Shown: piece after piece, positions 2,105-17,091 of the stretch
Numbering within the stretch: position 1 is the stretch's first letter
How the letters are laid out: the number at the start of each line of letters is the position of its first letter
Virus record (IMG/VR): IMGVR_UViG_3300038679_000051
Span: 160,001 to 224,000 of that record
Reading direction: 5' to 3' (one strand)
DNA: 64,000 nucleotides
Source of the DNA: a virus
Lineage: Duplodnaviria > Caudoviricetes
The notes under the pieces: model-generated
What the model was told of the DNA's origin: nothing
The model's input: only the letters and a program-made list of their open reading frames with translations
Databases searched by the model: none
Position numbers and translations under genes: made by a program

Positions 2105-5100
2105 TTAACCAAAATGTAAATATAATCTGGTGGTTGTGCTAGCAAGCATTTTATCTCCAACAGAGTCTGTAGCTAATTTACTCCAAGCTTGATTAGTATT
2201 ACCAAGAGGTCGTTGTTCGAACCAATTTGTTCCACCATCAGTAGAACAATAAATACGACCATTGGTAGTCGATGAATATATGCCCACCATCATTATTGCA
2301 GCATTTCCACCAATAACACCACATCTCCAATTTCTATTTCCTGGTGTGCCACCAGGTGGAAAAATTTCAGACCAATTTGCACCAGAATCCGATGACAAAT
2401 ATAATCTTCCGCCATATATGCCTGCTAACATATATTGGCCATTCTGACTACACGCCACAAAATCCCAATTTTTATTTCCTGGTGTGCCGCCAGGTGGAAA
2501 AATTTCAGACCAATTTGCACCAGAATCCGATGACAAATATAATCTTCCGCCATATACACATGCCATTAAATTCGTTCCAGTTGAATCAGATGCAACGTCA
2601 TCCCAACTCTTATCTTCGGCAGTTCCAGTTGGTGTAGTCTCTGACCAATTGGACCCATAATCTGATGATATATATACCCTGTCACTACACACAATCAAAT
2701 TAGATCCATCAGAATCAGATGCTATGCTAGCCCAATATTCATCATTGTCGCCAATTGGTCGTAATTCAGACCATGATGATCCATAATTTGTTGATTTATA
2801 TATCCTTCCAGTCGGTGTAAAACCCGAAATTTTGGATGAAATCACCACGATTTGTGAACCATTAGAATTACTGGCGGCATCCCCCCAATCTAAGTCCTGA
2901 TAGGTATCATTCGGTTGTGTCTCCGACCATATATCTCCACCATTGGTCGACACATACAATCTTTTACCATATGCCCCAGCGATCAAATTTTGGCCGTCAT
3001 CGTCAATCGCTAATGCTGTAAAATGACGATCAACGTTCCCTGCAGGTCTCGCTTCTGTCCAATATTCTGATGATCTAGACGAGGATGATGATCTAGACGA
3101 AGATGAAGAAGATTTAGATGAGGACAAAGAGGATGAAGAAGATTTAGATGAAAACGAAGAGGATTCAGAAGATTTAGAGGATTTAGACGAAGATGAAGAT
3201 AAAGATGAAGATAAAGAAGACGAAGACCAACAAAGATACGGTGTTTGTGATTCTTTGTTTGGCCAATTTATATAAGACCCAGATAATATACCTATTTCTA
3301 ATCTGATCTCTGTTAGGTTCGCGTCAGCGATGAATGAATTAGGTAGAAGTTCTAACTTCCCATTAGCGTCAACACATCCATAATCAAATATGAATCCATC
3401 TCTTGCTATTAATCTCCAGAATGCATTTGGCTCTGCTATATCATTGCCTAAGAATTGGGCAAGATCCCAAGAATCACCAATGTTTTGTAAAAATGCTCCG
3501 CCGAGTATCATAATTGGGCCACAGTCATTAAAATCAGATATATTTGTTAAGGGTTGACAATCGCCAGGCCATCGAATTGTCGTTTGATCGTCTGATTCTG
3601 AACAACCAATCTGCAATTGCATATATCCGGTATAATAGTAAGACGATACGAATTGTGCTGGTAATCCGAGCAATTCATTGTTTTCATCGATACATCCGGC
3701 ACCATACCATGGGTAAACAGTTGGGTAGCATGCACCAATCTCTATTAATCTCCAGTATCCACCACATGTTGCTATTCCAATTCCTTGATATGGTGTTAAA
3801 TCCCAAATTGGATCTGTTCCTCCATGGGTTGTTTTGCTAGCTAATATTGTTGGTGTGCATGAGCATAATGATGATGACGAACTGGATTTAGATGAACTGG
3901 AGCTGGATTTAGATGAACTGGAGCTGGATCTAGATGATGAACTAGATTTAGATGATGAACTAGAAGATTTAGACGACGAACTAGAACTGGAGGATTTAGA
4001 CGACGAACTAGAACTGGATCTAGATGATGATGAACTGGAGGATCTAGACGACGAACTGGAACTGGATTTAGATGACGAACTGGAACTGGATTTAGACGAA
4101 CTAGAACTGGAGGATTTAGACGACGAACTGGAACTGGATGACATAGATGATGATGAACTGGAACTAGACGACATGGAACTAGACGATGAGCTGGAACTAG
4201 ACGATAAACTAGATGAACTAGACGATGAACTAGATGAACTAGATGATGAACTGGAACTGGATGATGAACTGGATGATGAACTGGATGATGATGAACTAGA
4301 ACTGGACGACGACCCAGCGTCGCATGGTATCGATGTGCATACGTCCAATTCATATCCGGTACAACAGTCGACCTGGTTATAATTAATTTGCACCTTAATT
4401 AGAGCACTACCGCTCCATGGTTGATAATTTGGCGTATCAAATTTACTAGGTTTTGGTATTCTCAAAAAGAAAGTCAATTCACGCAATCCACCATCAGGTC
4501 TTAATATTGTTGCTTTAAATGTCTCATTCCCGATTGTTGGGACTGGGACTTCTTTGAGTCTCGTCATTAATTCTGCGACGATTGCATCGCCTACCCATTT
4601 GTCATTCAAATAAAGTTCGTTAAGATATGCATTCCATTGTGCGTCCGTCCAATTAGATAATTGTTGTCGTGATTGATTCCATTCTAGAGATGCGGGCATC
4701 TTCATTGCGTCAATGTCGGGCAATTTAAGATATGTCATTTTTTCTTGGTATTTAAATGGCGTCGGATGCGTCGTATCTATTGGGAAGAATTTTGCTCGTT
4801 GTTCAAAATACACTGGCGTTAATCCAGTGGCACTCAATAATTCTGCCGTCATAATTGCATTGCAACGACTTGGGAATTTACCACCAGCAGCTAAAAAATC
4901 ACCTCGTTCTTTGTCGCACTTATCAGTCGGTGATTTTACTTTTACCGTAAACGCTATCCATTCACCATCATCGCAGCATCCCCGCTTATAAGATCCATCT
5001 TCTTTTCTACAAGCTGGATCAAGCCATTCATCGTAATTCAATTTAAATGTGGCTATTTGTTTGTCGCCATTAATGGCACATTCTTGTGGTGGTATGCATC

Positions 5101-6463
5101 TGATTGTTTCTTCCTTGCATTCCACACAACACAATGGTGAACAGTTGATGTCAATTTCTTTGCCTTGTATTTCACATGGGCATGGACAACCGATTTTCTT
5201 AGGTGGACTGAATGCACCAGCAACATCACATACGTCACCAACGTTTGCGCACAAAAACATATCTTCTTGACAACAAAATTCCTCTGGTCTTGGATTTTTC
5301 ATGATCTTGAAGGGTAATGTTTGTTCTTCTTGCCATTCAAATTTCGCCCAATCGAATCTAGATACGTCAATGCATGCTCTCTGTGGCGTCCATGCCGGTA
5401 GATTCAACACTGGCTCGACCGAATCCGTTGAGATGTATTCATTATAGACGATATATTTACATGTCTGGGTCGTCGGTTGTATTGCTACCCATTTGACTAG
5501 ATGATCTGAATATCCTGGCGACGATGGATTTTCGTGACAGATGATGACTGGTTTGAATGCCGTAGCTGGCGGTAGATATGTCGGTACAATACCCATGACG
5601 CACATTTCTTTAGAGATTGCATCGACCAAATAGAATAAGTTATTGCCGACGTCGCTCTTTCTCAAATTTTTAACTGCTTGATCTACGATCAGACTATCTA
5701 ATAATTGTTGGTCCTCGATGATCTGTAAGAAATTTAAACCATCAGGTCCGATTTCACCTTTTGGGCCAATTTGTCTGATCTTGAACGTCCACGAACCCTT
5801 CTCAAACGTTCCATAAATTGTTGCTTTGAACGTCTCATTCTCCCACGTTATGTCTTTGATCTCGACTTGTTGTCCGATTATTTCGACTACTTCCATGTCT
5901 TTGGTCAACAACATTTCGGTAACTTGATTTCTGTAATTATATAAACGAAGTGAAATGTTCGTCTCGATTGGTAACGTCAATGCCTTCTCGACCATCATTG
6001 ATGATGTGGTTAAATTTCTGGGTTTCAAATGCCTTTCTTTATAAGCCTTAATGCCAGATCTGCCTTGTTTGCCTTGTAGTCCAGCATCACCTTTGGGACC
6101 TACGCAGACGTTGCGCAATACTTTCTGATGCAATCTACTTCTATCAACCTCATATCTTAGGCTCTGTTGTGATTCAGGATAGAATCTAATCAAATCATCA
6201 GACGAATTAAAATAATAGAAATATGCCTGATTATTTTCAAATTTTACTGTTTTGCGTAAGTCATCTTTGTGGAATTCTATTTTTCTTTCCCGATCGAATA
6301 ATGTCGGATACACCAACCCATCATTCTCTACATCTACAATTCGTGGAATTTTCGTCGCGCCCTTGTTTATCCATGAATTAGATTCTATGTCAAATTCATG
6401 CAGTACGCCATAAACATCTATGACTTGGTCTTTGTCTTTGGCATTTGGCGGAAACATAATCAT
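2105..6463 (-). CDS. large fibre/adhesin-like virion protein (collagen motifs, Cys-rich, poly-Ser linkers, C-terminal BNR-type propeller)
   Basis: GPKGDAGLQGKQG and GPKGEIGPDG triplets; Ser tracts; repeated S-x-D-x-G-x-x-W BNR motifs; function inferred. Confidence 0.7.
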   Translation of the reverse strand: MIMFPPNAKDKDQVIDVYGVLHEFDIESNSWINKGATKIPRIVDVENDGLVYPTLFDRERKIEFHKDDLRKTVKFENNQAYFYYFNSSDDLIRFYPESQQSLRYEVDRSRLHQKVLRNVCVGPKGDAGLQGKQGRSGIKAYKERHLKPRNLTTSSMMVEKALTLPIETNISLRLYNYRNQVTEMLLTKDMEVVEIIGQQVEIKDITWENETFKATIYGTFEKGSWTFKIRQIGPKGEIGPDGLNFLQIIEDQQLLDSLIVDQAVKNLRKSDVGNNLFYLVDAISKEMCVMGIVPTYLPPATAFKPVIICHENPSSPGYSDHLVKWVAIQPTTQTCKYIVYNEYISTDSVEPVLNLPAWTPQRACIDVSRFDWAKFEWQEEQTLPFKIMKNPRPEEFCCQEDMFLCANVGDVCDVAGAFSPPKKIGCPCPCEIQGKEIDINCSPLCCVECKEETIRCIPPQECAINGDKQIATFKLNYDEWLDPACRKEDGSYKRGCCDDGEWIAFTVKVKSPTDKCDKERGDFLAAGGKFPSRCNAIMTAELLSATGLTPVYFEQRAKFFPIDTTHPTPFKYQEKMTYLKLPDIDAMKMPASLEWNQSRQQLSNWTDAQWNAYLNELYLNDKWVGDAIVAELMTRLKEVPVPTIGNETFKATILRPDGGLRELTFFLRIPKPSKFDTPNYQPWSGSALIKVQINYNQVDCCTGYELDVCTSIPCDAGSSSSSSSSSSSSSSSSSSSSSSSSSSSSSSSSSSSLSSSSSSSSSSMSSSSSSSSSMSSSSSSSSKSSSSSSSKSSSSSSSKSSSSSSSRSSSSSSSRSSSSSSSKSSSSSSSSKSSSSSSKSSSSSRSSSSSSKSSSSSSKSSSSSSLCSCTPTILASKTTHGGTDPIWDLTPYQGIGIATCGGYWRLIEIGACYPTVYPWYGAGCIDENNELLGLPAQFVSSYYYTGYMQLQIGCSESDDQTTIRWPGDCQPLTNISDFNDCGPIMILGGAFLQNIGDSWDLAQFLGNDIAEPNAFWRLIARDGFIFDYGCVDANGKLELLPNSFIADANLTEIRLEIGILSGSYINWPNKESQTPYLCWSSSSLSSSLSSSSSKSSKSSESSSFSSKSSSSSLSSSKSSSSSSRSSSSSRSSEYWTEARPAGNVDRHFTALAIDDDGQNLIAGAYGKRLYVSTNGGDIWSETQPNDTYQDLDWGDAASNSNGSQIVVISSKISGFTPTGRIYKSTNYGSSWSELRPIGDNDEYWASIASDSDGSNLIVCSDRVYISSDYGSNWSETTPTGTAEDKSWDDVASDSTGTNLMACVYGGRLYLSSDSGANWSEIFPPGGTPGNKNWDFVACSQNGQYMLAGIYGGRLYLSSDSGANWSEIFPPGGTPGNRNWRCGVIGGNAAIMMVGIYSSTTNGRIYCSTDGGTNWFEQRPLGNTNQAWSKLATDSVGDKMLASTTTRLYLHFG
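2329..2556. repeat. ~90-bp near-identical direct repeat, period 138 bp (one propeller blade)
   Basis: ctggtgtgcc...cttccgccatata at 2341 and 2479; protein GGRLYLSSDSGANWSEIFPPGGTPGN twice. Confidence 0.9.
3068..3226 (-). repeat. second Ser-rich low-complexity tract (~53 codons)
   Basis: SSSSLSSSLSSSSSKSSKSSESS... in the 1452-aa ORF. Confidence 0.9.
3869..4312 (-). repeat. poly-serine coding tract (~148 codons) punctuated by K/R/M/L
   Basis: degenerate gatgatgaactagaactg-type repeats, TCN/AGY codons on the minus strand. Confidence 0.95.
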
Positions 6464-8193
6464 TCGACCACCTCCGCCGTCACCGTTAGATCATATCCAA
6501 TGCAGCACACAGTTTTATCTAGATTTACTTGTATATCTAATCTCATCGTCCCAGTTCCAATGATTATTATTGATGCATTACCCATGTCTGTTATTGCCAA
6601 TATTCCTTCGGGGTCTTGTGTCATCTCGTCTTCCAGACAGGTCGGTATTATGTTAGATCTTATTGAACATGGTTCTATTTTAAATTTTGTGTGCTCATCA
6701 CAGTAATTATTGTTATTCAATGCGATTGTTATTTTCGTTTTGGATTTATTTAAAATAATTTCTTGCCGATACTCGTGCATTTTCCCATTTATTGAACACT
6801 GATACGTATTCGATGTCGTTTCACCATCGAATATCATCAGGTCAGTTCTTGGTTGACAATCACACGGACATTCATCTGTTTCAAATCTGATGATTTTAGG
6901 CACATCGCCTTCTACTGGACATGAGTCGCCGACATTTGCGCACCAAAATAAGTCTTGTTGGCAACATTGTTCTGGTGGGCGTGGATCTTTTAATATGTTG
7001 AAAGGTATTACACCACCCTTTTCTTCTGCCTGGATGTCATCCTGCCAATCATATGTCGCTATTGGAAATCTTAGTCTATCAGCACATTGTTTCATTGGCG
7101 TCCAGAATGGTAAATTAAGCACTGGTTCGGATATTGCCGAAAGAGATAATGGCTTGATAGTGACAATGTCTTTACATTCCCTGGACGTCTCCAATATTGC
7201 TACCCATAATGCTCTCTCTACTATGTCAAGCGGTAGCCCATAAACCGGCGTCAAACCATAAACGCAGGATCCCTCAGTTACTGCTTGACGTTTATATAAT
7301 ATGTCTGAAGAAGTCGATGATTTCCTAACGTTTATCACTGCATTAGTAGAGACTATCCCTAGATCATCAATCCATTTTAATTTAGTTTGTAGAAAATTTA
7401 GCCCATTCGGCCCAGTTTCACCCTTTGGGCCGATTTGTCTGGTTTTAAAATAATGCTTGTCGTATGAACCTAACGACAACTTAATTGTTGCCTCGATCGT
7501 CCACACATCCTCAGTTTTCGCTATCTTTATTGTTGGATTTTCACTTATTATGGTGCTTTTAGTATAATTCTTTATGGTGATGTTGTCAGCGTTAGTGCCA
7601 TCCGTTTCAATTAATATCTCAGACGTTTTTATGTCATATTTGTTATATAATCGTATCGAAATAGGCGTATCAATTGGTATGTTGACGTCGACAGTGAATG
7701 TTGCCTCGACATTAGAAATGAATTTCGGTATGATTCGTCTTTCTTTAGGTGCCGACATACCTGGCCAACCCTGATCGCCCTCATATCCAACATCTCCCCG
7801 TTCCCCGACACATACGTTCCTGAGGATTTTTTGATATAATCTACCTCTATCGACTTCACATCGCAATGTCTCTCGTGTCTCACCATAAAATCTTATTAAA
7901 TCATCTGACGAATTAAAATAATAAAAATATGATGGCATCATTATTTCAGTCTGGAATTTGATCAAATTTAATTGATTTTTATACTTATTGATCAATAAAA
8001 TTCTATCATATAATTTAGGATATATTAATCCATTGGTTTCTTCGTTGACATTAGGCGGTGTTTTGATTACCCCTTTATTGATAAAGGAATCTGATTTCTT
8101 ATTATATTCATATATCACCCCTTCGCTATCAGCGTATTGCCCACCATCGATGAGGTTTCCATCAAATGGTGGAAGTTTGCATGATTTGGCCAT
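6460..8193 (-). CDS. paralog of the N-terminal part of the 1452-aa fibre-like protein
   Basis: shared YYFNSSDDLIRFY, RNVCVG, RQIGPKGExGPxG, EPVLNLPxWTP, PRPxExCCQxD motifs. Confidence 0.8.
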   Translation of the reverse strand: MAKSCKLPPFDGNLIDGGQYADSEGVIYEYNKKSDSFINKGVIKTPPNVNEETNGLIYPKLYDRILLINKYKNQLNLIKFQTEIMMPSYFYYFNSSDDLIRFYGETRETLRCEVDRGRLYQKILRNVCVGERGDVGYEGDQGWPGMSAPKERRIIPKFISNVEATFTVDVNIPIDTPISIRLYNKYDIKTSEILIETDGTNADNITIKNYTKSTIISENPTIKIAKTEDVWTIEATIKLSLGSYDKHYFKTRQIGPKGETGPNGLNFLQTKLKWIDDLGIVSTNAVINVRKSSTSSDILYKRQAVTEGSCVYGLTPVYGLPLDIVERALWVAILETSRECKDIVTIKPLSLSAISEPVLNLPFWTPMKQCADRLRFPIATYDWQDDIQAEEKGGVIPFNILKDPRPPEQCCQQDLFWCANVGDSCPVEGDVPKIIRFETDECPCDCQPRTDLMIFDGETTSNTYQCSINGKMHEYRQEIILNKSKTKITIALNNNNYCDEHTKFKIEPCSIRSNIIPTCLEDEMTQDPEGILAITDMGNASIIIIGTGTMRLDIQVNLDKTVCCIGYDLTVTAEVVE

Positions 8194-9386: not shown

Positions 9387-9664
9387 TGGGTCTCTTTGGA
9401 TTTCTTAGAAAAACGCCGAATATTCCTGCCCCAATGGTGATCGAATTACACATCACCGGGTCTTTGGAGATCAAAGGTGACCTACAGCGAGATTACGGCG
9501 AAAAATTTAAGTCGTTGGGAGTTTCCCAAAGAGACGATAGACAAATCAAGTCATCTGAGGGAAAGCTTGCTGACGCCATCGCTGCACAACAACTCACTAA
9601 CCTCAAATTGCAGTTTGAAGGACAGAATACGATTGCTGGTCTTGGCCAAGAAGCGGATCAATAA
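9383..9664 (+). CDS. hypothetical protein
   Basis: ATGA overlap with upstream stop, GGAGG SD; track start 9338 probably too early. Confidence 0.65.
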   Translation: MMGLFGFLRKTPNIPAPMVIELHITGSLEIKGDLQRDYGEKFKSLGVSQRDDRQIKSSEGKLADAIAAQQLTNLKLQFEGQNTIAGLGQEADQ

Positions 9665-9737
9665 CGTTGAAGAGAAACGTAAACTGGCGGATGTGCTTTC
9701 GAGAATTAGGCGAATTAGCTTTAGGAGCGGAAAAGCG

Positions 9738-10754
9738 ATGAATTTTGGATTAGATGTAGGGACCAAAAACGTGGTATTGTCTTATCGAGATCAAAGTGGT
9801 AAGATAAAAAGACGTCATGAAATCAATGGATTTTGTAAATTAAACAACGGCGATGGATTGTCTAAGCAGTTATTGACGCAGAACGGCATACCGTTCATTG
9901 AATGTAAGGACAATTTAATAGCATTAGGCGCACGTGCTGAGGAATTGTCCTACGCTTTTAATCAGCCATTACAACGACCAATGGCTGATGGAGTCGTAAA
10001 TGGTGATGAAGATGAAGCCATCAACATCATGTCCACTATTATCAGGTCGTTATTACTTGGCGTCATCGGTGGTGATTCGACGGTTCACTACTGCGTACCA
10101 GCCAAAGCTTTAAATGCTGAATTAAATGTTGCCTTTCATCAGAAAGTGGTTCAGATGATCGTAGATTCGGTCTCATCTAAGGGAGTAAAATTAGATGCCG
10201 TCGCCATAAATGAAGCTCGCGCTTTAGCTTTTAGCCAAATACCCGACAAAACCGCAATAGCCGTTTCGTTTGGTGCAGGAATGGTTAATGCTTGTTATAG
10301 TTTGTTTGGTTTACCAGTGTTTGAATTTAGTCTTGTTGGTTCTGGCGATTGGATTGACCGTGAAACGGCACGAGTGATCAAAGGTGAAACTATGACTTCA
10401 ACATGTCGATATAAGGAAAATAAATTGAAGAATAGAAAATTTACGTTGAAAAAAATGCCGGAAGACAATGTTGGGAAAGCATTATATATTAATTATGGCA
10501 TTCTAATTGAGAATGTCGTCAGAGGATTGGTCGACGGATTCATACAAAATGAAGACAAGGCCAGATTAGAACGACCAATGCCAATAATCTTGGGTGGTGG
10601 AACTGCGATGGTCGATGGATTTCAAGATAGATTTCAAGAGGTCATAAATGATTTAGAAGTACCATTTCAAGTTGGTGAAATTAAGATGGCCGACCCAATG
10701 CTTTATGCTGTAGCTGATGGATGTTTGGTTGCTTCTGAATTACATAAAGGATAA
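9738..10754 (+). CDS. actin-like ATPase (MreB/ParM/MamK superfamily)
   Basis: GLDVGT phosphate-1, SFGAG phosphate-2, LGGGTA adenosine motif, AVADG connect-2; start at AGGAG-preceded ATG 9738 (track 9477). Confidence 0.85.
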   Translation: MNFGLDVGTKNVVLSYRDQSGKIKRRHEINGFCKLNNGDGLSKQLLTQNGIPFIECKDNLIALGARAEELSYAFNQPLQRPMADGVVNGDEDEAINIMSTIIRSLLLGVIGGDSTVHYCVPAKALNAELNVAFHQKVVQMIVDSVSSKGVKLDAVAINEARALAFSQIPDKTAIAVSFGAGMVNACYSLFGLPVFEFSLVGSGDWIDRETARVIKGETMTSTCRYKENKLKNRKFTLKKMPEDNVGKALYINYGILIENVVRGLVDGFIQNEDKARLERPMPIILGGGTAMVDGFQDRFQEVINDLEVPFQVGEIKMADPMLYAVADGCLVASELHKG

Positions 10755-10756
10755 TT

Positions 10757-11176
10757 ATGCGGAAGACGTTTGAAATCAATGATCGTCGTTTCGTCGTAAA
10801 CGGGCCGATCGGCCCGTCTATGGAATTAATCAAACGATTGAAAAAATGGAAAGGAAACATATCAAAAAAAGCGCCAGAAACATTGCCTGGTACGTCATAT
10901 GCAATGATGGAATTGTCAAAAGAGAAGATTAAACCAAAATCATCGAAATTAGCAACATTAATCATACCATTTAGTATGAATGTCAAGGATTTGACAGGGA
11001 AGATTCCAAAATCTTGGATTCGTGGATTGGACGGATCTATGGGGCGTTGTAGAGTCTATCATCGTGGCATGTACAAAGGTACAATTAACGTAAAGTCCAT
11101 TGACACTAATACGGTCTCCTGCGATGAATTAAAAAAACAGAAAATCCCAATTTATGTAAGAGGCGTCCACAGTTGA
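10757..11176 (+). CDS. hypothetical basic protein
   Basis: 139-aa ORF abutting the actin-like gene. Confidence 0.7.
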   Translation: MRKTFEINDRRFVVNGPIGPSMELIKRLKKWKGNISKKAPETLPGTSYAMMELSKEKIKPKSSKLATLIIPFSMNVKDLTGKIPKSWIRGLDGSMGRCRVYHRGMYKGTINVKSIDTNTVSCDELKKQKIPIYVRGVHS

Positions 11177-11177
11177 A

Positions 11178-11182
11178 GTATT
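11178..11182 (+). promoter_or_regulatory. GTATT element 9 nt before SD-less ATG (dnaE piece 1)
   Basis: same motif 8-9 nt before ATGs at 13814, 14309, 22098, 34833, 58088. Confidence 0.5.
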
Positions 11183-11191
11183 TAATGACTC

Positions 11192-12541
11192 ATGGTTGAG
11201 GAATTTGTTCATCTACACGTTCATTCATTATTTAGCGTTCTGGACGGAATATGTTCGCCCAGACAGTATGTCGAAAAATGCATGGAGCGGAAATGGGGTG
11301 CAATAGCCTTAACTGAACACGGCAACATGGCCTCAATACCAGATCTCTATTTTGCTACGAAGGAATTTGGAATTAAACAAATAATTGGTTGTGAATTATA
11401 TTATAATGATGAACATTTAAAATTTAGAAAAATTGTTGATGCAGGTGGTACGATAGGTGATTTAAAAAAATCCGAAGATTTTGTTATAAAAGATTTAGCA
11501 TCTAGAATAACGCGTAATAGGCACATTACCATATTATGTAAAAACGAAATAGGATATCGTAATTTGTTACAAATAATGAAATGCGCATGGGAGATTGGTT
11601 TTTATTATAGACCAAGAACATGGTTTGACATGCTAGATAAACATCACGAAGGATTAATTATATTATCTGGATGCTTGAATGGACCAATTTCATTTGAAAT
11701 TCGTGAACACATGCGACTGACGAGGGAATATGAAATGCTTGGTGATGTACGTTATAAACAGAAAGCCGAAGAACATCTTCTGACTGGCATAAAATTATTT
11801 AAAAAATTCAAGAAGACATTTGGTGATGATTATTATGTGGAATTACAAATGCCAGGCGTGCCTGATGATGAAGAGGTATTTGCCAAATTACATGCATTAG
11901 CCATACAATCAAAGACGAAAGAAGTAATTACAGGTGACAGTCATTATTTGGAACGCAAAGATTTTATCATCCAGAAACTAATGATGGCTGTCGATCAGAA
12001 CGTTACCATTGATGATCCGAATTTATTCCATGTAAATTCAGATGAACAATTTTTTAAAGATCGTGCTCAATTTAGAGAAACATTCAATTCTAAATCATAT
12101 CGTGACAATTGTTCTATTGAGGATTTTGAACGTGCCTGTGACAACACTCTGGAAGTCGCAGACAAAGTGGTGCCATTTATGCTTGATTCTGAACCGAAAT
12201 ATCCATCTATAGAAAATGCAAATGAAATCCTACGTAAGCGGTGTCATGATGCTCTCAAGATGATGAAATTGGACAAAAAAGAATATGTCGATCGATTAGA
12301 ATTCGAATTAAATAGAATAATAAGCAAAGATTTTGCGTCATATTTCCTAATAACTCAAGACATGACCAATTTTTCTCGATCTCATGGGTTAGTCATAGGA
12401 CCTGGCCGTGGGAGCATAGGCGGGTGTTTAGTGGCATATTTATTGCGAATACATACCGTCGATCCATTAAAATGGGGATTGTCTTTCGATAGATTTCTTA
12501 GTCCTTCACGTGGCGGAAAGATGTTAAAGGTTGTTATGTAA
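11192..12541 (+). CDS. dnaE: DNA polymerase III alpha, N-terminal piece (PHP domain plus palm up to GRGS...FDRFL)
   Basis: VHLHVHS.FS.LDG, ALTEHGNM, GPGRGS, VDPLKWGLSFDRFLSPSR; ends before the catalytic PDID motif. Confidence 0.92.
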   Translation: MVEEFVHLHVHSLFSVLDGICSPRQYVEKCMERKWGAIALTEHGNMASIPDLYFATKEFGIKQIIGCELYYNDEHLKFRKIVDAGGTIGDLKKSEDFVIKDLASRITRNRHITILCKNEIGYRNLLQIMKCAWEIGFYYRPRTWFDMLDKHHEGLIILSGCLNGPISFEIREHMRLTREYEMLGDVRYKQKAEEHLLTGIKLFKKFKKTFGDDYYVELQMPGVPDDEEVFAKLHALAIQSKTKEVITGDSHYLERKDFIIQKLMMAVDQNVTIDDPNLFHVNSDEQFFKDRAQFRETFNSKSYRDNCSIEDFERACDNTLEVADKVVPFMLDSEPKYPSIENANEILRKRCHDALKMMKLDKKEYVDRLEFELNRIISKDFASYFLITQDMTNFSRSHGLVIGPGRGSIGGCLVAYLLRIHTVDPLKWGLSFDRFLSPSRGGKMLKVVM

Positions 12542-12559
12542 ATAAAATGAGAGGATGAC

Positions 12560-12955
12560 ATGGACAACGATAGAATTAGGAAATTAATGATCGAAGCGCG
12601 ACATTCGACTTACGTCTTTTATAAGATGTTGTCAGATGATAAAACCAATGACATAAACAAATCTCTTATGGCACCAATGTTGAAGTGGGTGGACGTAGCC
12701 GATGCATTTCTGAATAATGACGAGAAATTAGCATTGACTGATTTAGAAATGATTATAATTGAACCTATGAAAATGTTGGCTGATGCTTGTTCTGCACGTC
12801 TAAATAAGACTATTGAATCACCAGCGATGGAGAAAATAATTGCAGCGACTGATGTCTTTAAACGGAAAAAAGCGTACGTTGAATACATCAACGAATTGTT
12901 CGTTTCTTTAGAAACGATCACTGGAACGAGATACCCAAGAATAAAGGAGGCGTGA
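12560..12955 (+). CDS. hypothetical protein
   Basis: 131-aa ORF with GAGG SD. Confidence 0.75.
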   Translation: MDNDRIRKLMIEARHSTYVFYKMLSDDKTNDINKSLMAPMLKWVDVADAFLNNDEKLALTDLEMIIIEPMKMLADACSARLNKTIESPAMEKIIAATDVFKRKKAYVEYINELFVSLETITGTRYPRIKEA

Positions 12956-12956
12956 G

Positions 12957-13352
12957 ATGTATGACATATTGATCAGTGGTAAAAAATCTGCGATTGGCAT
13001 TATGTTTTTAAAGGATCGTCAATTAATAAAAAGCATAAGAATTGTGATTTCTAAACCGGAAAATTCCGACGTTAATAAATCGGAATTATTAGGTCTGAAA
13101 TATGCATTGTTGGCTGTAATAAATAAGATGATTCCACTTAATTTACACCTAAATACATATCCACTTAGGTCATTGTCACCAAGGACAAATCCATCAGTAA
13201 ACAAAGAACTGATCTCAGAATTAAGGGAATTATGTTCATCATTTAAAACGGTAAATTTATTAAGATTGCAAGATCATGAATTAATAAACCAGGTAAAGGA
13301 TTTAGCGACGATCACGGTTGATCTGCCAGTCGGAGCGACGGTTATATCTTGA
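12957..13352 (+). CDS. RNase H-fold protein, probably degenerate
   Basis: NKSELLGLKYALLAV resembles RNase HI NxAELxAxxxAL; first and third acidic residues not evident. Confidence 0.5.
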   Translation: MYDILISGKKSAIGIMFLKDRQLIKSIRIVISKPENSDVNKSELLGLKYALLAVINKMIPLNLHLNTYPLRSLSPRTNPSVNKELISELRELCSSFKTVNLLRLQDHELINQVKDLATITVDLPVGATVIS

Positions 13353-13797
13353 ATGATAATTCGCCCGGTTTATGAACTTGACCCATATTCAGTGGTCTCT
13401 GACTTGTTACGTCTTTATTCTTTCCTGCGTATTGTCCGGATAGCCATTTCATTAATCCCGTCCTGTCATATGCTGACGCCATATCATCAATTTCAATAAA
13501 AGTTTCATTGTCATTATAGCCAGTGGCATTTATCGGAAAGATTTCATCCTTATAGACATACATCTGATCTGATTCTGGCAATTTATCAAGCATATTGCGT
13601 GGCCAACTGACGATTGATTTCGTACCAGATGGGACATATAAACCTTTGATTGGTCTACCAATGCTGTCGACTATTGACACTGGTGACAAGAAATCATGGT
13701 CCGATTCATGATGAAATGGGCGTCCATTGTTGATTATGGCGGATTTAACCCATACGATTGGTATTAAACATCTAGGGGCATTTTCGAAATTTTTCAT
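13342..13797 (-). CDS. hypothetical protein
   Basis: in-frame ATG at 13797 avoids overlap with 13814 gene (track start 13863). Confidence 0.65.
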   Translation of the reverse strand: MKNFENAPRCLIPIVWVKSAIINNGRPFHHESDHDFLSPVSIVDSIGRPIKGLYVPSGTKSIVSWPRNMLDKLPESDQMYVYKDEIFPINATGYNDNETFIEIDDMASAYDRTGLMKWLSGQYAGKNKDVTSQRPLNMGQVHKPGELSFKI

Positions 13798-13813
13798 ATA
13801 GTATTTTTGAAAA

Positions 13814-14209
13814 ATGATAATAAAAGAATGGTCAGATGTCGTATTGATTGCAGCTAAACGCATACGAAACGATCGTCTGTCGGTCGAGTATGTCCAGCGG
13901 TTGAAATATGAAATTGATCAAATAGAAATGCAGGGCGCTAATGAATATTGGATGGATTTAATTAGAGAAGATAAAAAATTTGATCACAATAAAAACGGTT
14001 TGGTGTTGCCGTTTCTGTTGAATATGACGGACATAGATCCAATTATTTACAAACACATTTATGAACTCGATGACAATGGAATTGTTGGTGATGTGGTTGA
14101 TGTTACGTTGGAAGATGGATCTATGGTTTCGTTACCAGCAAAGGCTCATGTCAAAATTGAATCGTTAAGTAAATTGGTTTCTGATCTTAAGATTGGTGAT
14201 GAGATCTGA
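13814..14209 (+). CDS. DnaE-related middle piece: degenerate palm segment plus intein-N-like tail
   Basis: RLKYEIDQIEMQG and LPFLLNMTDIDPI parallel DnaE RLxYELxVI and LVAYLLGITDIDPI; tail VTLEDG...H...DLKIGDEI resembles HINT block B end. Confidence 0.7.
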   Translation: MIIKEWSDVVLIAAKRIRNDRLSVEYVQRLKYEIDQIEMQGANEYWMDLIREDKKFDHNKNGLVLPFLLNMTDIDPIIYKHIYELDDNGIVGDVVDVTLEDGSMVSLPAKAHVKIESLSKLVSDLKIGDEI

Positions 14210-14233
14210 CTTAAGATTGGTGATGAGATCTGA
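14186..14233 (+). repeat. perfect 24-bp tandem duplication of the ORF end
   Basis: cttaagattggtgatgagatctga at 14186-14209 and 14210-14233. Confidence 0.95.
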
Positions 14234-14308
14234 TAGAGTTTTCATCCCAGCAAAAGTCAATGTTGGTTTCATGCCACATTTTTGATTGTTATTATGTATT
14301 CATTTTTT

Positions 14309-14449
14309 ATGAAGATAACGGCAATTAATTTTAGGAAAGGAAAAATTAGGGACGTACCCGGTGATAGTTACAATGTCGGTGGGTTCCAAGTCATTCCAGA
14401 AATTGGGATTCCACACCGAATTGAACGTCACCCAGACGTTCCTGACTAG
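14309..14449 (+). CDS. 46-aa intein-C-like/DnaE junction peptide (MKITAINFRKGKIRDVPGDSYNVGGFQVIPEIGIPHRIERHPDVPD*), not in ORF track
   Basis: translated by hand; ends in VPD immediately before out-of-frame IDIDY; GTATT-N8-ATG start. Confidence 0.6.
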   Translation: MKITAINFRKGKIRDVPGDSYNVGGFQVIPEIGIPHRIERHPDVPD

Positions 14450-16532
14450 TGACATTGATATCGACTATTTGCCTGAAGCGAGAGAGAAAATTAAAGAATA
14501 TATTTCGTCTAAATATGGATTTGAACATGTATGTTCGGTTGGTCTATGGCAATCATACAATTTTAAAATGGCAATGCAAGATGCTGCCAAAGCTCTTGGC
14601 AAAGATAAAGCCCCGGTATTTAAAATAACAAAAACTTTGCCAGACGATTTTGATGATCGACCAATAAATGAAGTATTAAAGGCATTAACTTCGGAACATA
14701 TCAAACAAGAGAATCCAGAATTAAGTGAATTAGCTGATTATTATTCTACTGATGATGGTAAAATGGTCGTAGACATGGCATCAAGGATGACTGGTTTGTT
14801 AAAGACGCAAGGCAAACACGCCGCTGGAATAATCATATCTAATGTCAATTTGTTTGAAACCATACCTATGAGCAAACTTGGCGGTCTGTGGACGTCACAA
14901 TGGACCGAAGGATATTCACCACAATTATCTAAATTTGGTTTGATTAAATGGGACGTGTTGGGACTCAAGACGATGTCCTATATTTGGAAATGCATTAATT
15001 TCATTAAAGAGAAGAATAAAGACATAGGGTTGCCGAAATGTGTCATTTGTAATGGCACTGGCTCTAGCGAATCGGAATATGAGAAATTCGGTGACAAATG
15101 TATGGAATGTAGTGGATCGGGTGTATCGATCGAACACATAGATTTTAATGTCAAAGAAGTATTACGATTAGCTAATGATTTGAAAACTGAATCAGTTTTT
15201 CAATTCGAGACTGATTTGGCCAAATCAATTTTAAAAAAAGGTGGCGTCAAATCTTTTAATGATTTGTTGATTTATACGAGTTTAGGTAGACCAGGGCCAT
15301 TGCCCTTGATTGACGAATATATTGAACGTCGTGATGATAAAAATGAAAAATGGAGAAAACAAGAGCATCCTGATGTTGTTGAATTATTTAAGGATACTTT
15401 CGGAATAGTGGTCTTCCAAGAGACGTTGCAATTATATTGGACAAAGATTTGTGGTTTTACCGTTCCCGAAGCTGAAGCAGCTAGAAAAGCAGTGGCTAAA
15501 AAATGGGGTGAACAACTTGAAAAGGTAATGAAGAAAGCGGAGATTGGTGCAGCGAAAAAAATTGGACATGATGAAGCTGTGAAATGGAATAAACGAATCG
15601 AGACGTTTGGACGCTATGCCTTCAATAGATCACATGCCGTAGCCTATTCGATAATAGCATATCTTTGTTTGTATTTCAAATCAAAATTTCCTGTTGAATG
15701 GTGGGCGGCAGTATTGAGCATATGTGATGATCGCAACAAAATTTCGAATTATGTTATGGTGTCAAGAAATGAAGGCGTCAAATATTCGGCATTACACTGT
15801 GACAATTTGACCAAAGATTTTGTGGTTAGGAACGACGAAATCGTTCCCGGTCTATCTGGCATCAAGGGCATTGGTGATAAGGCAATGGCTAATGTCTTAT
15901 TGAATGCTGGTACGAAATATCAATCGGTTGATCATTTTATTGAGAAGAATGGCAAGAATAAAATATTGATGGAGAGATTGATTAAATTGGGTGCATTTGA
16001 TCACTTATTTCCTAATAGATCTGCGTTATGGATGTGGTATTTATTGAAACATTCGACGTGTAAACAATCTAAGGAAGCTAAATCATATTTTAAAACCAAA
16101 CTTGGAATACCAGAGAAGGGTAAATTGAACATATCGTTTGAGGAAGTGGTAAAATTGTCTCCAAAATGGGGATTGAGGAAGATTCTATTTTTTGAAAAGG
16201 ATTTCTTTGGGTATCATTTCACATCTCCAATGTCTTGTTATAAATTTAGTGGACATACCATCGAGGATGCGGCCGAAACCAATGTAATGGAAGTAGTAAT
16301 ACAAGACAATGAATTAAGGCAGACTAAGACTAATAAGAAATATCTAAAATTATTGGTTACTGATGGGACGACTAGTGCGACGTTGTTGATTTGGGATGTT
16401 GGCATAATAGATAACATTGAGGATGTGTCACCAGGATCCGGTATTAGAGTGGAAGTGAACTGGGATGAAAAATTCAATAGTTATTCACTTAGGAGAAATT
16501 CCAAGATTGTGTTACTTGACAAGGATGATTAA
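14361..16532 (+). CDS. dnaE: DNA polymerase III alpha, C-terminal piece (catalytic DIDID from 14451, fingers, OB fold)
   Basis: DIDIDY, GKHAAGIII, KWDVLGLKT, VFQFE, GRPGP, FNRSHAVAY; the first 30 codons of this frame may not be the true N-terminus. Confidence 0.9.
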   Translation: MIVTMSVGSKSFQKLGFHTELNVTQTFLTSDIDIDYLPEAREKIKEYISSKYGFEHVCSVGLWQSYNFKMAMQDAAKALGKDKAPVFKITKTLPDDFDDRPINEVLKALTSEHIKQENPELSELADYYSTDDGKMVVDMASRMTGLLKTQGKHAAGIIISNVNLFETIPMSKLGGLWTSQWTEGYSPQLSKFGLIKWDVLGLKTMSYIWKCINFIKEKNKDIGLPKCVICNGTGSSESEYEKFGDKCMECSGSGVSIEHIDFNVKEVLRLANDLKTESVFQFETDLAKSILKKGGVKSFNDLLIYTSLGRPGPLPLIDEYIERRDDKNEKWRKQEHPDVVELFKDTFGIVVFQETLQLYWTKICGFTVPEAEAARKAVAKKWGEQLEKVMKKAEIGAAKKIGHDEAVKWNKRIETFGRYAFNRSHAVAYSIIAYLCLYFKSKFPVEWWAAVLSICDDRNKISNYVMVSRNEGVKYSALHCDNLTKDFVVRNDEIVPGLSGIKGIGDKAMANVLLNAGTKYQSVDHFIEKNGKNKILMERLIKLGAFDHLFPNRSALWMWYLLKHSTCKQSKEAKSYFKTKLGIPEKGKLNISFEEVVKLSPKWGLRKILFFEKDFFGYHFTSPMSCYKFSGHTIEDAAETNVMEVVIQDNELRQTKTNKKYLKLLVTDGTTSATLLIWDVGIIDNIEDVSPGSGIRVEVNWDEKFNSYSLRRNSKIVLLDKDD

Positions 16533-16763
16533 ATGTTATTAGACACCAAGAATGGCATTGTTTGTGATTTGTGTAATAGACCACACAAGAATCAATTCGT
16601 TTATTATTCGATGCGAATGGTAAAAGTGTCTGTGGATGTTGATGCTAAACAAACTATACACACTGATACGGACATTGATCTAGATGTCTGTGAATTTTGT
16701 AAGAAGAAATTAGAGGAGAGGATTTTAGAGGTCTCAAAAATGAGAGGGGTGAATAATGGATGA
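16533..16763 (+). CDS. small Zn-ribbon protein
   Basis: CDLC ... CEFC. Confidence 0.7.
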   Translation: MLLDTKNGIVCDLCNRPHKNQFVYYSMRMVKVSVDVDAKQTIHTDTDIDLDVCEFCKKKLEERILEVSKMRGVNNG

Positions 16764-17091
16764 TCTGACTCCAGAACATTTTGCATTGATCATGGTTGAT
16801 ATTGGCGGCGTTACTGTGGAGGCCAGACCATATGAATGGGATTATGATGGTGATGGCAATCCAATAGTTGCTATGGCATATCGAACGACGTGTCCACATT
16901 GTTCACAATTAATAGAATTCAATGTGCATGATCTACATGACATGATGTTCTATTGTAATGAATGCAATAAAGGAAAGGATATGTGGACGCAGAAGAATAA
17001 TGAGATGTTGATCAATAAATCTTATGATGATGAGCCGATTATTTTCGATTTAATAGAACCGATAAAATCTGGATTGATGGAGATGCCATGA
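16756..17091 (+). CDS. Zn-ribbon hypothetical protein
   Basis: CPHC ... CNEC. Confidence 0.7.
   Translation: MDDLTPEHFALIMVDIGGVTVEARPYEWDYDGDGNPIVAMAYRTTCPHCSQLIEFNVHDLHDMMFYCNECNKGKDMWTQKNNEMLINKSYDDEPIIFDLIEPIKSGLMEMP

Follow-up and report, generated by a model that had tools for sequence, protein, structure and literature searches.

Organization of the DnaE genes

The window, a stretch of 64,000 nucleotides, derives from a 320-kb groundwater phage. In the lineage formed by this phage and more than 100 relatives, DnaE is encoded by two genes, N and C, which are arranged in the window as follows.

11192..12541, plus strand: DnaE N gene (piece 1), with PHP domain and GPGRGS loop
12560-12955, plus strand: small gene between the N and C genes
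12957-13352, plus strand: small gene between the N and C genes
13342-13863, minus strand: small gene between the N and C genes
13814..14044, plus strand: 5' end of the C gene, a pre-palm segment (from homologues, BLASTP against piece 1 and AF2)
14454..16532, plus strand: rest of the C gene (piece 3), with the remaining catalytic Asp codons, palm, thumb, fingers, HhH and C-terminal domain

The initial annotation, which described a DnaE fractured into three pieces, placed piece 1 at 11192-12541, three ORFs next and piece 2 at 13814-14209, and these coordinates are confirmed. Piece 1 encodes 449 residues ending in ...SPSRGGKMLKVVM and matches the Pfam families PHP (E 3e-37) and DNA_pol3_alpha (positions 2-98, E 1.5e-27). 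The palm begins in piece 1, GPGRGS loop included, and is followed there by a conserved C-terminal strand that lacks Asp (...SRGGxMLKVxM). The N gene is found at the equivalent position, with the same C-terminal end, in L005, L006, L096 and L097, and these loci share the order N gene, small genes, C gene. The small genes of L005 and L006 at the equivalent place are alike in size and orientation. Pfam and PHROG searches with the three small ORFs of the window (12560..13863) gave no match; these genes are context and lie outside DnaE.

Piece 2 is a plus-strand ORF of 131 residues with the C-terminus ...DLKIGDEI. The piece-2 segment opens more than 100 homologues of 780-860 aa, in which the sequence continues uninterrupted into the catalytic motif. 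By comparison with these relatives, pieces 2 and 3 are a single C gene; piece 3 matches DNA_pol3_alpha positions 101-260, DNA_pol3_finger and HHH_6. Piece 2 itself weakly matches DNA_pol3_alpha positions 13-91 and aligns with piece 1 residues 364-426 (BLASTP E 0.001), with a 12-residue gap at GPGRGS. The AF2 model of the pre-palm segment consists of four helices (pLDDT 93-98). Judged from these alignments, the segment duplicates piece 1 residues 364-426 in degenerate form, the GRGS loop being absent. In DnaE coordinates, pieces 1 and 2 overlap because both match the same DNA_pol3_alpha/piece 1 stretch, and the N and C genes share about 90 residues of these coordinates. The N protein has kept the GRGS nucleotide-binding loop together with a copy of the catalytic strand that lacks Asp, and the C protein has lost GRGS and retained the catalytic aspartates.

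A cassette with an intein-derived tail and a nuclease gene

Between the two parts of the C gene, the window contains the following additional features.

14045..14209, plus strand: C-terminal extension of piece 2 (tail), 54 aa plus stop, with intein N-half homology
14165..14272, minus strand: homing-endonuclease gene remnant, a 35-codon ORF that aligns with the ends of the L004 copy
14180..14234: tandem duplication of 24 nt, 2.2 copies (TRF)
14309..14404, plus strand: N-terminal extension (head) of the downstream ORF, 32 codons (MKITAINF...) with a new start codon

The end of piece 2 had been noted to resemble a split-intein N half, and profile comparison bears this out. A profile of 41 tails aligns with 13 genuine split-intein N halves over 44 columns (hhalign 98.7%, E 2.9e-16). 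The tail corresponds to the last 44 residues of such halves, with 44 of about 99 N-half positions present. Its profile also matches the gp41-1 and NrdJ-1 inteins (PDB), and an exhaustive profile search recovered intein-ended gene fragments (E 1e-8 to 1e-4). Cys1 and TxxH are missing from the tail, and the T and H of block B are replaced by P and A. The sequence likewise agrees with the earlier observation that a block-A Cys, a terminal His-Asn and a +1 nucleophile are absent. Four strands are predicted, which are weakly superposable on intein structures, that of the Npu DnaE intein included (Foldseek E 0.4-5 over 36-46 columns, a weak match). On the evidence of homology, the tail is what remains of a split-intein N half, truncated and catalytically dead, and purifying selection acts on it (dN/dS 0.27). 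Among 47 hits to stand-alone piece-2-like ORFs, a tail of ~52 aa is present in 44 distinct clusters, and a full intein N half is absent from all 44.

The head is missing in intact relatives, e.g. P0006, and conserved in 9 loci. It had been taken for an intein C half; a search for such homology in its 32 residues detected none. The tail and head are predicted to form a complex with an ipSAE of 0.56 (best control 0.01), a value in the range of 0.60 or under, where 7 of 80 solved complexes passed our association mark, as did both of the mismatched pairs that passed it. Overall, 58 of the 80 solved complexes and two of 110 mismatched pairs passed. The predictions used our own alignments, the runs shared at least 94% of contacts, and partner pLDDT was at least 73. 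This modeling weakly suggests that tail and head associate.

These results bear on the architecture first proposed, in which three colinear, separately started DnaE fragments include pieces 2 and 3 joined by a complete dead HINT fold. This reading is favored by the tail's intein N-half homology and by its weakly predicted association with the head, and what survives of the proposed non-splicing association module is an N-half remnant amounting to about half a HINT domain. The C half has no detectable counterpart. The pieces are also not colinear thirds: piece 1 is a separate conserved gene that piece 2 overlaps, and piece 3 as counted from 14309 is interrupted by a frame change at 14447. Relatives do carry pieces 2 and 3 as one contiguous ORF, an outcome that the initial annotation had named as refuting; more than 100 lack the tail-head segment, and P0007 carries it as a continuous insertion. 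We therefore regard this architecture as very unlikely.

The minus-strand ORF of 35 aa consists of the first 8 codons of a nuclease gene and its duplicated last ~16 codons, and aligns with both ends of a fragmented nuclease copy in L004 (833-1700, minus strand). The 24-nt duplication (TRF period 24, 93% matches, score 103) spans the piece-2 stop codon and lies at the deletion junction of the nuclease gene. Neither the duplication nor the remnant figured in the initial annotation. An intact nuclease gene (300-307 aa) lies between tail and head in L012, L097 and L098; these copies match DUF7487 (36-39 bits), TnsA-like N (20-24 bits) and PHROG 'homing endonuclease' families. The gene has an internal deletion in L096, and L103 carries a different, PD-(D/E)XK-like nuclease-like gene at the cassette. 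The cassette is mobile: P0020, an intact allele, and L098, which carries the cassette, agree at 694 of 696 piece 3 residues and throughout the first 73 residues of piece 2, and their differences adjoin the junction.

A stop-led insert in the catalytic motif

Piece 3 had been placed from 14309. An ATG at this position does open MKITAINF..., but its frame stops at 14447-14449, after 46 codons, and DnaE sequence (DIDIDY...) goes on to 16532 in the +1 frame. Two features account for this organization.

14405..14446, plus strand: host-derived DnaE codons GIPHRIERHPDVPD, ending in the first catalytic Asp (candidate take-off GAC 14444-14446)
14447..14453, plus strand: insert TAGTGAC, 7 nt, by comparison with the uninterrupted L005 and L006

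In alignments, the host-derived codons correspond to ...GLSHKWERHPDVPD-VDIDW of the intact P0006 and to the equivalent segment of P0007. The insert consists of the stop UAG and a U, which make a 4-nt coding gap, and a duplicated Asp codon (candidate landing GAC 14451-14453). The small ORF ends after 46 codons because TAGTGAC separates the duplicated Asp codons of the catalytic motif. Contigs from three runs (45.7 kb, depth 22-41) are identical to the window over 13700-14900, though they may be this assembly's own source.

Stop-led inserts of 1-10 nt, in seven forms, were found in 12 loci, all within the same three codons; none was found in unsplit loci. The forms are grouped below.

GAY-[UAGU]-GAC: window, L004, L008
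GAU-[UAGCUGG]-GAC: L103, an independent 10-nt form
AUA-[UA]-GAU: L012, L020, L097, L098
GUU-[U]-GAC: L013
AUU-[UAGCUU]-GAU: L096
CCA-[UGAGCGU]-GAU: L009

Catalytic Asp codons are retained on both sides of the gap in 12/12 loci. In every form except that of L009, which offers no codon for re-pairing, re-pairing of the P-site tRNA could regenerate the ancestral protein. In L012, L013, L020, L096, L097 and L098, the stop separates the catalytic aspartates, the first being encoded only before it and the rest only after it.

Purifying selection is strong on all three fragments: at saturated synonymous divergence, dN/dS between the window and L004 is 0.17 (piece 2), 0.15 (small ORF) and 0.03 (piece 3). 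The small ORFs of the AUA-UA loci give values of 0.06-0.24. It is thus highly improbable that the C gene is a decaying pseudogene and that replication depends on a PolA-like ORF or a host enzyme. Two disruptions of the gene and a PolA-like ORF in the window speak for decay, which is nevertheless at odds with this selection, with the Asp codons kept across the gap in every locus and with the same architecture in 44 distinct clusters.

Piece 3 might also be expressed without recoding, the 46-aa peptide ending at UAG and piece 3 starting itself at ATG 14373 or GTG 14361; the small peptide would then be either a fourth chain of the polymerase or dispensable. The downstream frame of the window has a complete S-D-I-D-I-D-Y motif and an in-frame ATG 14373, and an independently started piece 3 is therefore possible there. 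This ATG and the GTG lie 26-30 codons before the intact motif, gene callers picked ATG/GTG starts (P0003, P0004), and L009 too has a start, TTG, with a complete motif. Selection in the overlap points the other way, with dN/dS between the window and L004 of 0.21 in the small-ORF frame against 1.29 in the piece-3 frame; the 26 codons before the motif are hence under no protein-level selection in the latter. Moreover, the start positions vary among the window, L004 and L008, and no start codon that would preserve a complete motif was found in the six loci with divided Asp codons. A selected head that is predicted to dock on the tail would also tether nothing if detached; that the head is under selection is understandable only with head and piece 3 in one protein. 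Expression without recoding is, in our judgement, unlikely.

The reading we prefer, at slightly better than even odds (about 0.55), is that the locus is the scar of a cassette, that its tails tether the halves of the C gene and that ribosomes hop the gap, yielding a three-chain polymerase. After the division into N and C genes, a mobile 'fractured-gene' cassette would have entered the C gene in the loop directly before the catalytic strand. It would have given the upstream half its stop codon and a C-terminal tail of 54 aa, and the downstream half a head of 32 aa with a start codon of its own. Its homing-endonuclease gene, TnsA-like/DUF7487 and free-standing, would have lain on the other strand, and 14 codons past the head it would have carried the 7-nt stop-led insert between duplicated Asp codons (P-D-x-D-x-D). 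The nuclease gene would later have been deleted in this phage, leaving the 35-codon remnant and the 24-nt duplication. The tail and head, which probably no longer splice, may join the C-gene halves non-covalently. Ribosomes from ATG 14309 would arrive at GAC-UAG, where peptidyl-tRNA-Asp may detach and re-pair with the GAC 7 nt downstream, and the hop product ...HPDVPD-IDIDY... would equal the ancestral sequence. The active polymerase would comprise the N protein, piece 2 and the head-hop-piece 3 protein. Three chains had been proposed at the outset, which would hold only with ribosomes crossing the 7-nt stop-containing gap, a feature absent from the initial annotation. The active enzyme probably needs both the tails as a tether and ribosomes that cross the gap. 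Short stop-hops are inefficient in synthetic constructs. A conserved RNA hairpin, a Shine-Dalgarno-like element and other known bypass stimulators were looked for at the gap and not found (fold z-scores -0.3 to +1.4).

The same history could instead involve a +1 frameshift at GAC-UAG, with Ser-tRNA reading AGU, in which case the product, ...PDVPD-SD-IDIDY, would gain two residues ahead of the catalytic strand. Shifts to +1 at a stop codon are known from prfB. The 7-nt insert is equal to +1, the window, L004 and L008 all keep AGU, and a shift is the sole explanation of the L009 insert (CCA-UGA-GCG-U), read as P-ER-DVDID. Several features make this route improbable: GAC is unable to re-pair in the +1 frame, residues added beside the catalytic Asp would probably be harmful, and the 2-nt and in-frame 6-nt inserts could not be read in this way. 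Nor does a shift need a duplicated Asp codon, yet one recurs in the 7-nt insert and again in the 10-nt insert of L103, which is independent. The junction peptide is predicted to be HPDVPDIDIDY if ribosomes hop and HPDVPDSDIDIDY if they shift.

Relationship to known systems

The proposed hop resembles the +1 frameshift of prfB and synthetic stop-hops, in which a stop codon occupies the A site while the tRNA in the P site moves to a matching codon close by and pairs again (PMC5009743). GUU-UGA-C of L013 resembles CUU-UGA-C. An upstream Shine-Dalgarno stimulator is absent here. Natural stop-hops of this kind were not known to Atkins et al. in their 2016 review (PMC5009743).

Phage T4 offers a close parallel. 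There, mobA splits the topoisomerase gene 39/60 and adds tails of ~44 aa (10.1101/2022.08.31.505936, citing Bonocora et al. 2011), and gene 60 has a 50-nt stop-led gap after codon 46 that is protective against MobA (10.1101/2022.08.31.505936). T4 and the loci here share a gap after codon 46, a cassette that adds a C-terminal tail and an N-terminal head (about 44 aa in T4), a nuclease gene often degraded or lost while the split and gap persist, and near-identical alleles without the element. By analogy, the insert may break the DNA target of the nuclease and so shield the cassette-bearing genome. The systems differ in host gene (DnaE here, topoisomerase in T4), nuclease (TnsA-like/DUF7487, or PD-(D/E)XK-like in L103, against the HNH MobA) and gap length (1-10 nt against 50 nt). 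The tail here is intein-derived, bypass here is a proposal, and no take-off hairpin, Shine-Dalgarno-like element or nascent-peptide signal was identified here.

The 'fractured genes' of marine metagenomes include three DnaE loci (Dassa et al. 2009, PMC2677866), and loss of the nuclease gene is a later step in such genes (PMC2677866). The tail here is homologous to N halves of split inteins of that class, e.g. gp41-1 and NrdJ-1. Unlike the products of fractured genes, the pieces here are not ligatable because the intein halves are truncated and lack any splicing residue. The stop-led insert in catalytic codons and a nuclease of another family than their Vsr-like one are further differences (PMC2677866).

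Related divisions occur in other enzymes and lineages. A homing endonuclease, MobE, likewise splits nrdA of Aeromonas phage Aeh1 ('genes in pieces'), whose products are associated and active and require the added tails (10.1101/2022.08.31.505936); it has neither the intein-derived tails nor the coding gap found here. The cyanobacterial Ssp/Npu DnaE is also a two-part gene, ending and beginning with intein halves, but its intein is active, at a different site and between genes far apart, whereas the remnant here is unable to splice. The DnaE of the cultured Cellulophaga phage phi13:1 (gp038/gp039, KC821625) differs in being of the canonical single-gene type with GRGS in the same chain, and in having no frameshifting insert and no nuclease gene between its ORFs. 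It is nonetheless annotated as a pair of adjacent ORFs with the break in the same loop; the upstream one has a similar ...TLEDGS... tail and the downstream one a similar MKI... head.

Sequence and reading frames of the interrupted region

The parent virus record of the window is 320,399 bp long and carries direct terminal repeats. The stretch is present in DNA runs from groundwater and coal metagenomes (a look-up of sequencing runs listed no RNA run), and 45.7-kb contigs from three runs, which may be the assembly's own source, are identical over 13700-14900 at a depth of 22-41. The open reading frames (ORFs) are as described in the initial annotation, except that the one opening with the ATG at 14309 ends at a stop (14447-14449) after 46 codons. 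Past this stop, DnaE sequence resumes in the +1 frame. The features of the region are as follows.

11192-12541: piece 1, the DnaE N gene, with a PHP domain and Pfam DNA_pol3_alpha positions 2-98
13814-14209: piece 2, with a weak match to DNA_pol3_alpha positions 13-91
14045-14209: tail, the C-terminal extension of piece 2
14165-14272, minus strand: 35-codon remnant of a nuclease gene
14309-14449: small ORF of 46 codons, of which the first 32 are the head and the rest DnaE-derived
14444-14453: GAC-UAG-U-GAC, the take-off codon, stop and landing codon of the proposed hop
to 16532: piece 3, the large ORF, with DNA_pol3_alpha positions 101-260, fingers and HhH (Pfam)

An alternative genetic code was rejected; UAG and UGA both occur in frame and what has to be explained is a change of frame, for which a reassigned stop is of no help. 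Introns were likewise rejected, the interruptions of 100 nt and 7 nt both being too short, and a search of 11000-17000 for group I/II introns or other RNA families gave nothing relevant at E-values up to 10.

Organization of DnaE into two overlapping genes

All parts of DnaE (PHP, palm with catalytic Asp triad, fingers, HhH) are present by Pfam, split between pieces 1 and 3. DnaE had initially been regarded as three independently started pieces, a view contradicted in part by its relatives. A search with piece 3 retrieved more than 100 homologues of ~780-860 aa, each opening with a segment like piece 2 residues 1-77, followed after ~14 residues directly by the catalytic motif P-D-x-D-x-D. Synteny is also conserved among relatives: an N gene with PHP and DNA_pol3_alpha domains is followed by two or three small genes and then the C gene, and in two relatives with an uninterrupted motif (L005, L006) the last small gene before the C gene is on the minus strand. 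Taken with this synteny, the contiguous C gene indicates that the lineage encodes DnaE as two genes; on these alignments, pieces 2 and 3 belong to one gene and piece 1 to a second. No single-protein locus turned up in a search with piece 3.

The two genes overlap in what they encode. Residues 364-426 of piece 1 can be aligned with piece 2, which lacks their 12-residue GPGRGS loop. All N genes close with a conserved ...SRGGxMLKVxM, which occupies the position of the catalytic strand without its aspartates and is conserved in five lineages. The N protein thus keeps GPGRGS and an Asp-less strand, the C protein lacks GRGS and keeps the catalytic Asp residues, and the two share a ~90-residue overlap (in DnaE coordinates) with complementary degeneracy.

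In L006, a Mom-like gene and an IS605-type TnpB gene (3477-5168 and 6254-7456) have also entered the space between N and C genes, so this interval is an insertion hotspot. Genuine inteins occur in relatives at a second DnaE site, AFN[KR]|C...HN|SHA, where the window is intein-free. They are found in L004 at 3064-3489 (protein P0004, residues 419-560), at the end of the L008 protein P0120 (residues 391-481) and in proteins P0028, P0035 and P0102, and include mini-inteins of 142-156 aa, ~400-aa versions that contain a nuclease domain, and true split inteins. In P0120 and a further protein, P0059, the C-terminus is a split-intein N half with Cys1 and TxxH.

Origin of the tail of piece 2

A set of 1.84 billion representative proteins was searched with a profile built from seven tails. 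The matches were other piece-2-like ORFs and the C-terminal ends of N-terminal fragments of unrelated enzymes, such as MetK, dUTPase-like proteins and another DnaE (E 2.6e-8 to 1e-4). Each of these fragments terminates in a genuine split-intein N half that has Cys1 and TxxH. When 41 tails were compared with 13 such N halves by hhalign, the probability was 98.7% (E 2.9e-16) over 44 columns; the match is limited to positions 48-91 of the 99-position N-half profile, and homology extends to the last 44 residues only. Against the PDB, the tail profile matched the gp41-1 (7e-4) and NrdJ-1 (1.3e-3) inteins, both of the 'fractured gene' class (Dassa et al. 2009, PMC2677866). A comparison of the seven-tail profile with the inteins resident in these DnaE genes gave a probability of 5% and is superseded by that with the right class. 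Leads from a protein atlas comprised clusters of small DNA_pol3_alpha and Hint fragments with scores of at most 0.90.

An AF2 model of piece 2 (42 sequences) has a mean pLDDT of 89.9, with the tail formed by four strands at pLDDT 72-87. The best 50 Foldseek rows for this model include DnaE/PolC structures and ~20 inteins, all at weak E-values (0.16-5.6 overall, 0.4-5 for the inteins). The tail begins right after ...IDPI, with no Cys or Ser aligned to Cys1 of block A. In the hhalign alignment, the block B TxxH has its T replaced by P and its H by A; most of the 41 tails read S-x-x-T, and TSKH is kept only in L008. With block A missing and the block B residues replaced, the tail reads as a dead remnant of a split-intein N half.

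Head and predicted association with the tail

The head ends in ...FQVIPE, followed by I-G-I-P-H, and has neither a C-terminal His-Asn nor a +1 Cys/Ser/Thr. The initial annotation had noted these absences, and that of Cys1, correctly. The resemblance to split-intein halves that it described is borne out for the tail, which is homologous to intein N halves. The head carries no such signal: hhalign against intein C halves gave probabilities of 0.3-0.7%, and a PDB profile search returned no intein.

Predicted together, tail and head reached an ipSAE of 0.56, compared with 0.01 for the best control, with at least 94% contact agreement between runs and partner pLDDT of at least 73. These predictions used our own alignments. 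Of 80 solved complexes, 58 reach the ipSAE mark, as do 2 of 110 mismatched pairs; the range up to 0.60 holds just 7 of those solved complexes and both passing mismatches, and the tail-head value weakly supports an association. Given the tail homology and this prediction, the earlier idea of a non-splicing association module is reasonable, in a reduced form: the module would amount to about half a HINT domain, and an intein origin is shown for its N half only.

In one relative's protein, P0007, tail and head are fused in a single ORF, with no nuclease gene and no frameshift, most simply as a secondary fusion. A word-based search found no other fused form. A single-chain AF2 model of P0007 residues 62-190, made without an alignment, had a pLDDT of 44.8, too low for use.

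A nuclease cassette between tail and head

The break in the C gene is attributed to a homing cassette, seen with its nuclease gene in relatives. Stand-alone piece-2-like ORFs with a ~52-aa tail form 44 distinct clusters. In L012 and L097/L098, an intact gene of 300-307 aa lies on the opposite strand exactly between the piece-2-like ORF and a small MKI... ORF. Its product matches DUF7487 (36-39 bits), an HTH and PHROG 'homing endonuclease' families (E ~1e-6), as well as a TnsA-like nuclease N-terminal domain at 20-24 bits, under the Pfam cut-off. L103 has a different, plus-strand gene in the cassette position (3914-5407), encoding a 497-aa nuclease-like protein (REase_MTES_1575, E 4.6e-4). The nuclease gene is intact in L012, L097, L098 and L103 and degraded in L004 and L096: L004, whose piece 3 is 84% identical to that of the window, has the same gene in four fragments, and L096 keeps its two ends and nothing else. 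In the window, the 35-codon remnant joins the first 8 nuclease codons to a duplicated copy of the last ~16, aligns with both ends of the L004 copy and contains a 24-nt tandem duplication (14180-14234). The L004 nuclease fragment had no tblastn match among cultured phages.

Alleles with and without the cassette exist in nearly identical backgrounds. P0020, an intact C protein, and the cassette-bearing L098 share 694 of 696 piece 3 residues and are identical over piece 2 residues 1-73, with their few differences adjoining the junction. Judged from this pair, the cassette is, or recently was, mobile. No such pair was found for the window's own lineage. The break at the catalytic site appears to persist after almost complete loss of tail, nuclease gene and head, as in an ORF pair from ENA contigs: P0223 is a 102-aa ORF in which the piece-2 helical segment leads through a 10-residue linker to ...IPHRWERHPDVPD and a stop, and the following ORF, P0005, starts 3' of the catalytic motif.

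The same loop is occupied elsewhere. In the cultured Cellulophaga phage phi13:1 (KC821625; L001, 2816-6416), a canonical DnaE is split at this loop into two adjacent ORFs, with a tail and head similar to those of the window and no frameshift, while L036 encodes a full-length DnaE with a continuous ~75-aa insertion there. The cassette family has apparently reached remote clades of DnaE.

A short gap in the catalytic motif

Uninterrupted relatives (L005, L006) read CCN GAY ATH/GTN GAY ATH GAY at the catalytic motif, and the window reads CCT GAC TAGTGAC ATT GAT ATC GAC, a 7-nt insert. The first catalytic Asp codon lies 5' of the gap, and its duplicate and the other Asp codons lie 3' of it. The insert is shared with L004 and L008, the latter at ~43% protein identity. 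Inserts in other loci fall within the same three codons, and each makes an immediate stop in the incoming frame. As far as the contigs reach, all insert-bearing loci have the tail/head split; the intact loci examined have no insert. Scans for the TAGTGAC junction as a DNA pattern found none in viral contigs, and two matches in metagenome contigs were discarded as unrelated genes.

Inserts in the catalytic motif (locus: insert; arrangement)
Window and L004: TAGTGAC; GAC-UAG-U-GAC, matched codons
L008: same inserted bases; GAT take-off codon
L103, 5539-5570 region: TAGCTGGGAC, 10 nt; GAU-UAGCUGG-GAC, 7-nt gap
L012, L020, L097, L098: TA; AUA-UA-GAU
L013: T; GUU-U-GAC
L096: TAGCTT; in frame
L009: TGAGCGT

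In all forms but that of L009, the tRNA of the last codon before the stop is able to re-pair a few bases downstream, with a perfect match for GAC/GAC and AUA/AUA and two of three bases for GUU/UUU and AUU/CUU, and the re-paired reading is the exact ancestral protein. A +1 shift at GAC-UAG, which would give the junction peptide HPDVPDSDIDIDY, leads into the same downstream frame, and we consider it unlikely. Another proposal is that piece 3 starts independently, with no junction peptide. This is possible in the 7-nt forms, where the whole motif is kept downstream, and is opposed by six loci (L012, L013, L020 and L096-L098) in which the first catalytic Asp lies solely 5' of the stop and the others solely 3', with no start codon yielding a protein with the whole motif; it too seems improbable.

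RNA structure predictions at the junctions of eight loci gave z-scores from -0.33 to +1.38 and no shared hairpin. In L103, the flanks UCCCUG/CUGGGA could pair around the 10-nt gap. In L092 (1-50), the sequence immediately 5' of GTG-GAC-GTT-GAT-TAC (VDVDY) bears no relation to DnaE and opens with a GAGGA...TCCTC hairpin; it may be an intron or other element at the same site, where the contig ends.

Selection on the divided gene

For the window-L004 pair, whose synonymous sites are near saturation, the dN/dS values are 0.17 (piece 2), 0.15 (small ORF) and 0.03 (piece 3). Where the small ORF overlaps the annotated start of piece 3, the small-ORF frame gives 0.21 and the piece-3 frame 1.29 (window versus L004), and it is therefore the small-ORF frame that codes as far as the stop. 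In the AUA-UA loci, the small ORFs have values of 0.06-0.24. Since the window and L004 share a decayed nuclease gene and the same gap, they probably diverged after the insertion. Conservation of piece 3 is uninformative about post-insertion function where the cassette arrived recently, as in L098. Beside the window-L004 values, it is very improbable that the C gene is a pseudogene.

Proposed mechanism and comparison with known systems

In phage T4, mobA splits the topoisomerase gene 39/60 within a metal-binding site, its cassette adds ~44-aa tails, and gene 60 has a stop-led gap between matched GGA codons after codon 46; the gap shields the DNA against MobA, whose gene is often lost later (Manning & Atkins 2022, bioRxiv 10.1101/2022.08.31.505936). 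These authors called the cassette unique. Shorter counterparts with matched codons have long been presumed, with no natural stop-hops known (2016 review, Atkins et al., PMC5009743).

As in T4, the window, L004, L008 and L103 have a stop directly 3' of the take-off codon with a matching landing codon, and near-identical alleles occur with and without the element (P0020/L098). On these parallels, the window is read as a decayed cassette with the same logic and different parts. The nuclease here is DUF7487 plus TnsA-like, in contrast to the HNH MobA, and the gaps are of 1-10 nt with no significant RNA structure, compared with 50 nt, a take-off hairpin and a Shine-Dalgarno-like element in T4. The L013 form, GUU-U-GAC, also resembles CUU-UGA-C of prfB. 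As in the 'fractured genes' of Dassa et al. (2009, PMC2677866), a nuclease gene lies between gene halves, and in the present loci it ranges from intact to remnant; unlike those genes, these loci have no ligation-capable split intein, all splicing residues being absent.

We propose that very short (1-10 nt), stop-led gaps in the DnaE Asp codons are read by stop-hops, that the cassette supplies protein tails, domesticated half-inteins, as non-covalent glue and that the gap immunises the DNA of its carrier against the nuclease of the cassette itself, and assign this reading as a whole a tentative probability of about 45%. In the window, ribosomes would hop from GAC 14444-14446 to GAC 14451-14453, giving the junction peptide HPDVPDIDIDYLPEAR. 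With the tails acting as glue between the halves of the C protein, three chains (N protein, piece 2 and head-piece 3 protein) would make up the polymerase. To the anatomy, homology, mobility and selection documented here, the proposal adds two inferred elements, the hop, from the codon arrangement, and a protective role of the insert against the nuclease, by analogy with T4.

If true, the T4 gene 60 bypass, hitherto treated as essentially unique, would have an independent counterpart: a non-homologous nuclease cassette in another essential gene, following the same logic in seven sequence forms, which constitute a natural variant set for the requirements of a minimal hop. It would also provide a path by which split inteins could evolve into the 'tails' of genes in pieces. 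The tails shown here indicate that those of a gene in pieces can be relics of a non-splicing split intein, which connects 'fractured genes' with 'genes in pieces'. In addition, the analysis brings to light a DnaE made of two genes that overlap and are degenerate in complementary ways. A point for annotation is that gene callers place the start of the large ORF in these loci at false start codons or 3' of the catalytic motif.

Other features of the window

Between palm and fingers, piece 3 has a zinc-ribbon-like CxxC...CxxC insertion (15036-15137, residues ~226-258) with weak matches to DnaJ_CXXCXGXG and Anti-TRAP (E 0.002-0.008). Two genes upstream of the DnaE N gene is an actin-like gene (9477-10754; Pfam Volactin, E 1.5e-47), and L006 has an actin-like gene in the same position. 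The match of a 373-aa ORF at ~24844-25212 (G000 184844-185212) to Pfam DNA_pol_A is confined to the C-terminal third of the family (positions 246-380, 32.6 bits), and the ORF may represent another polymerase gene that is split or truncated; a similar faint DNA_pol_A match occurs downstream in L006.
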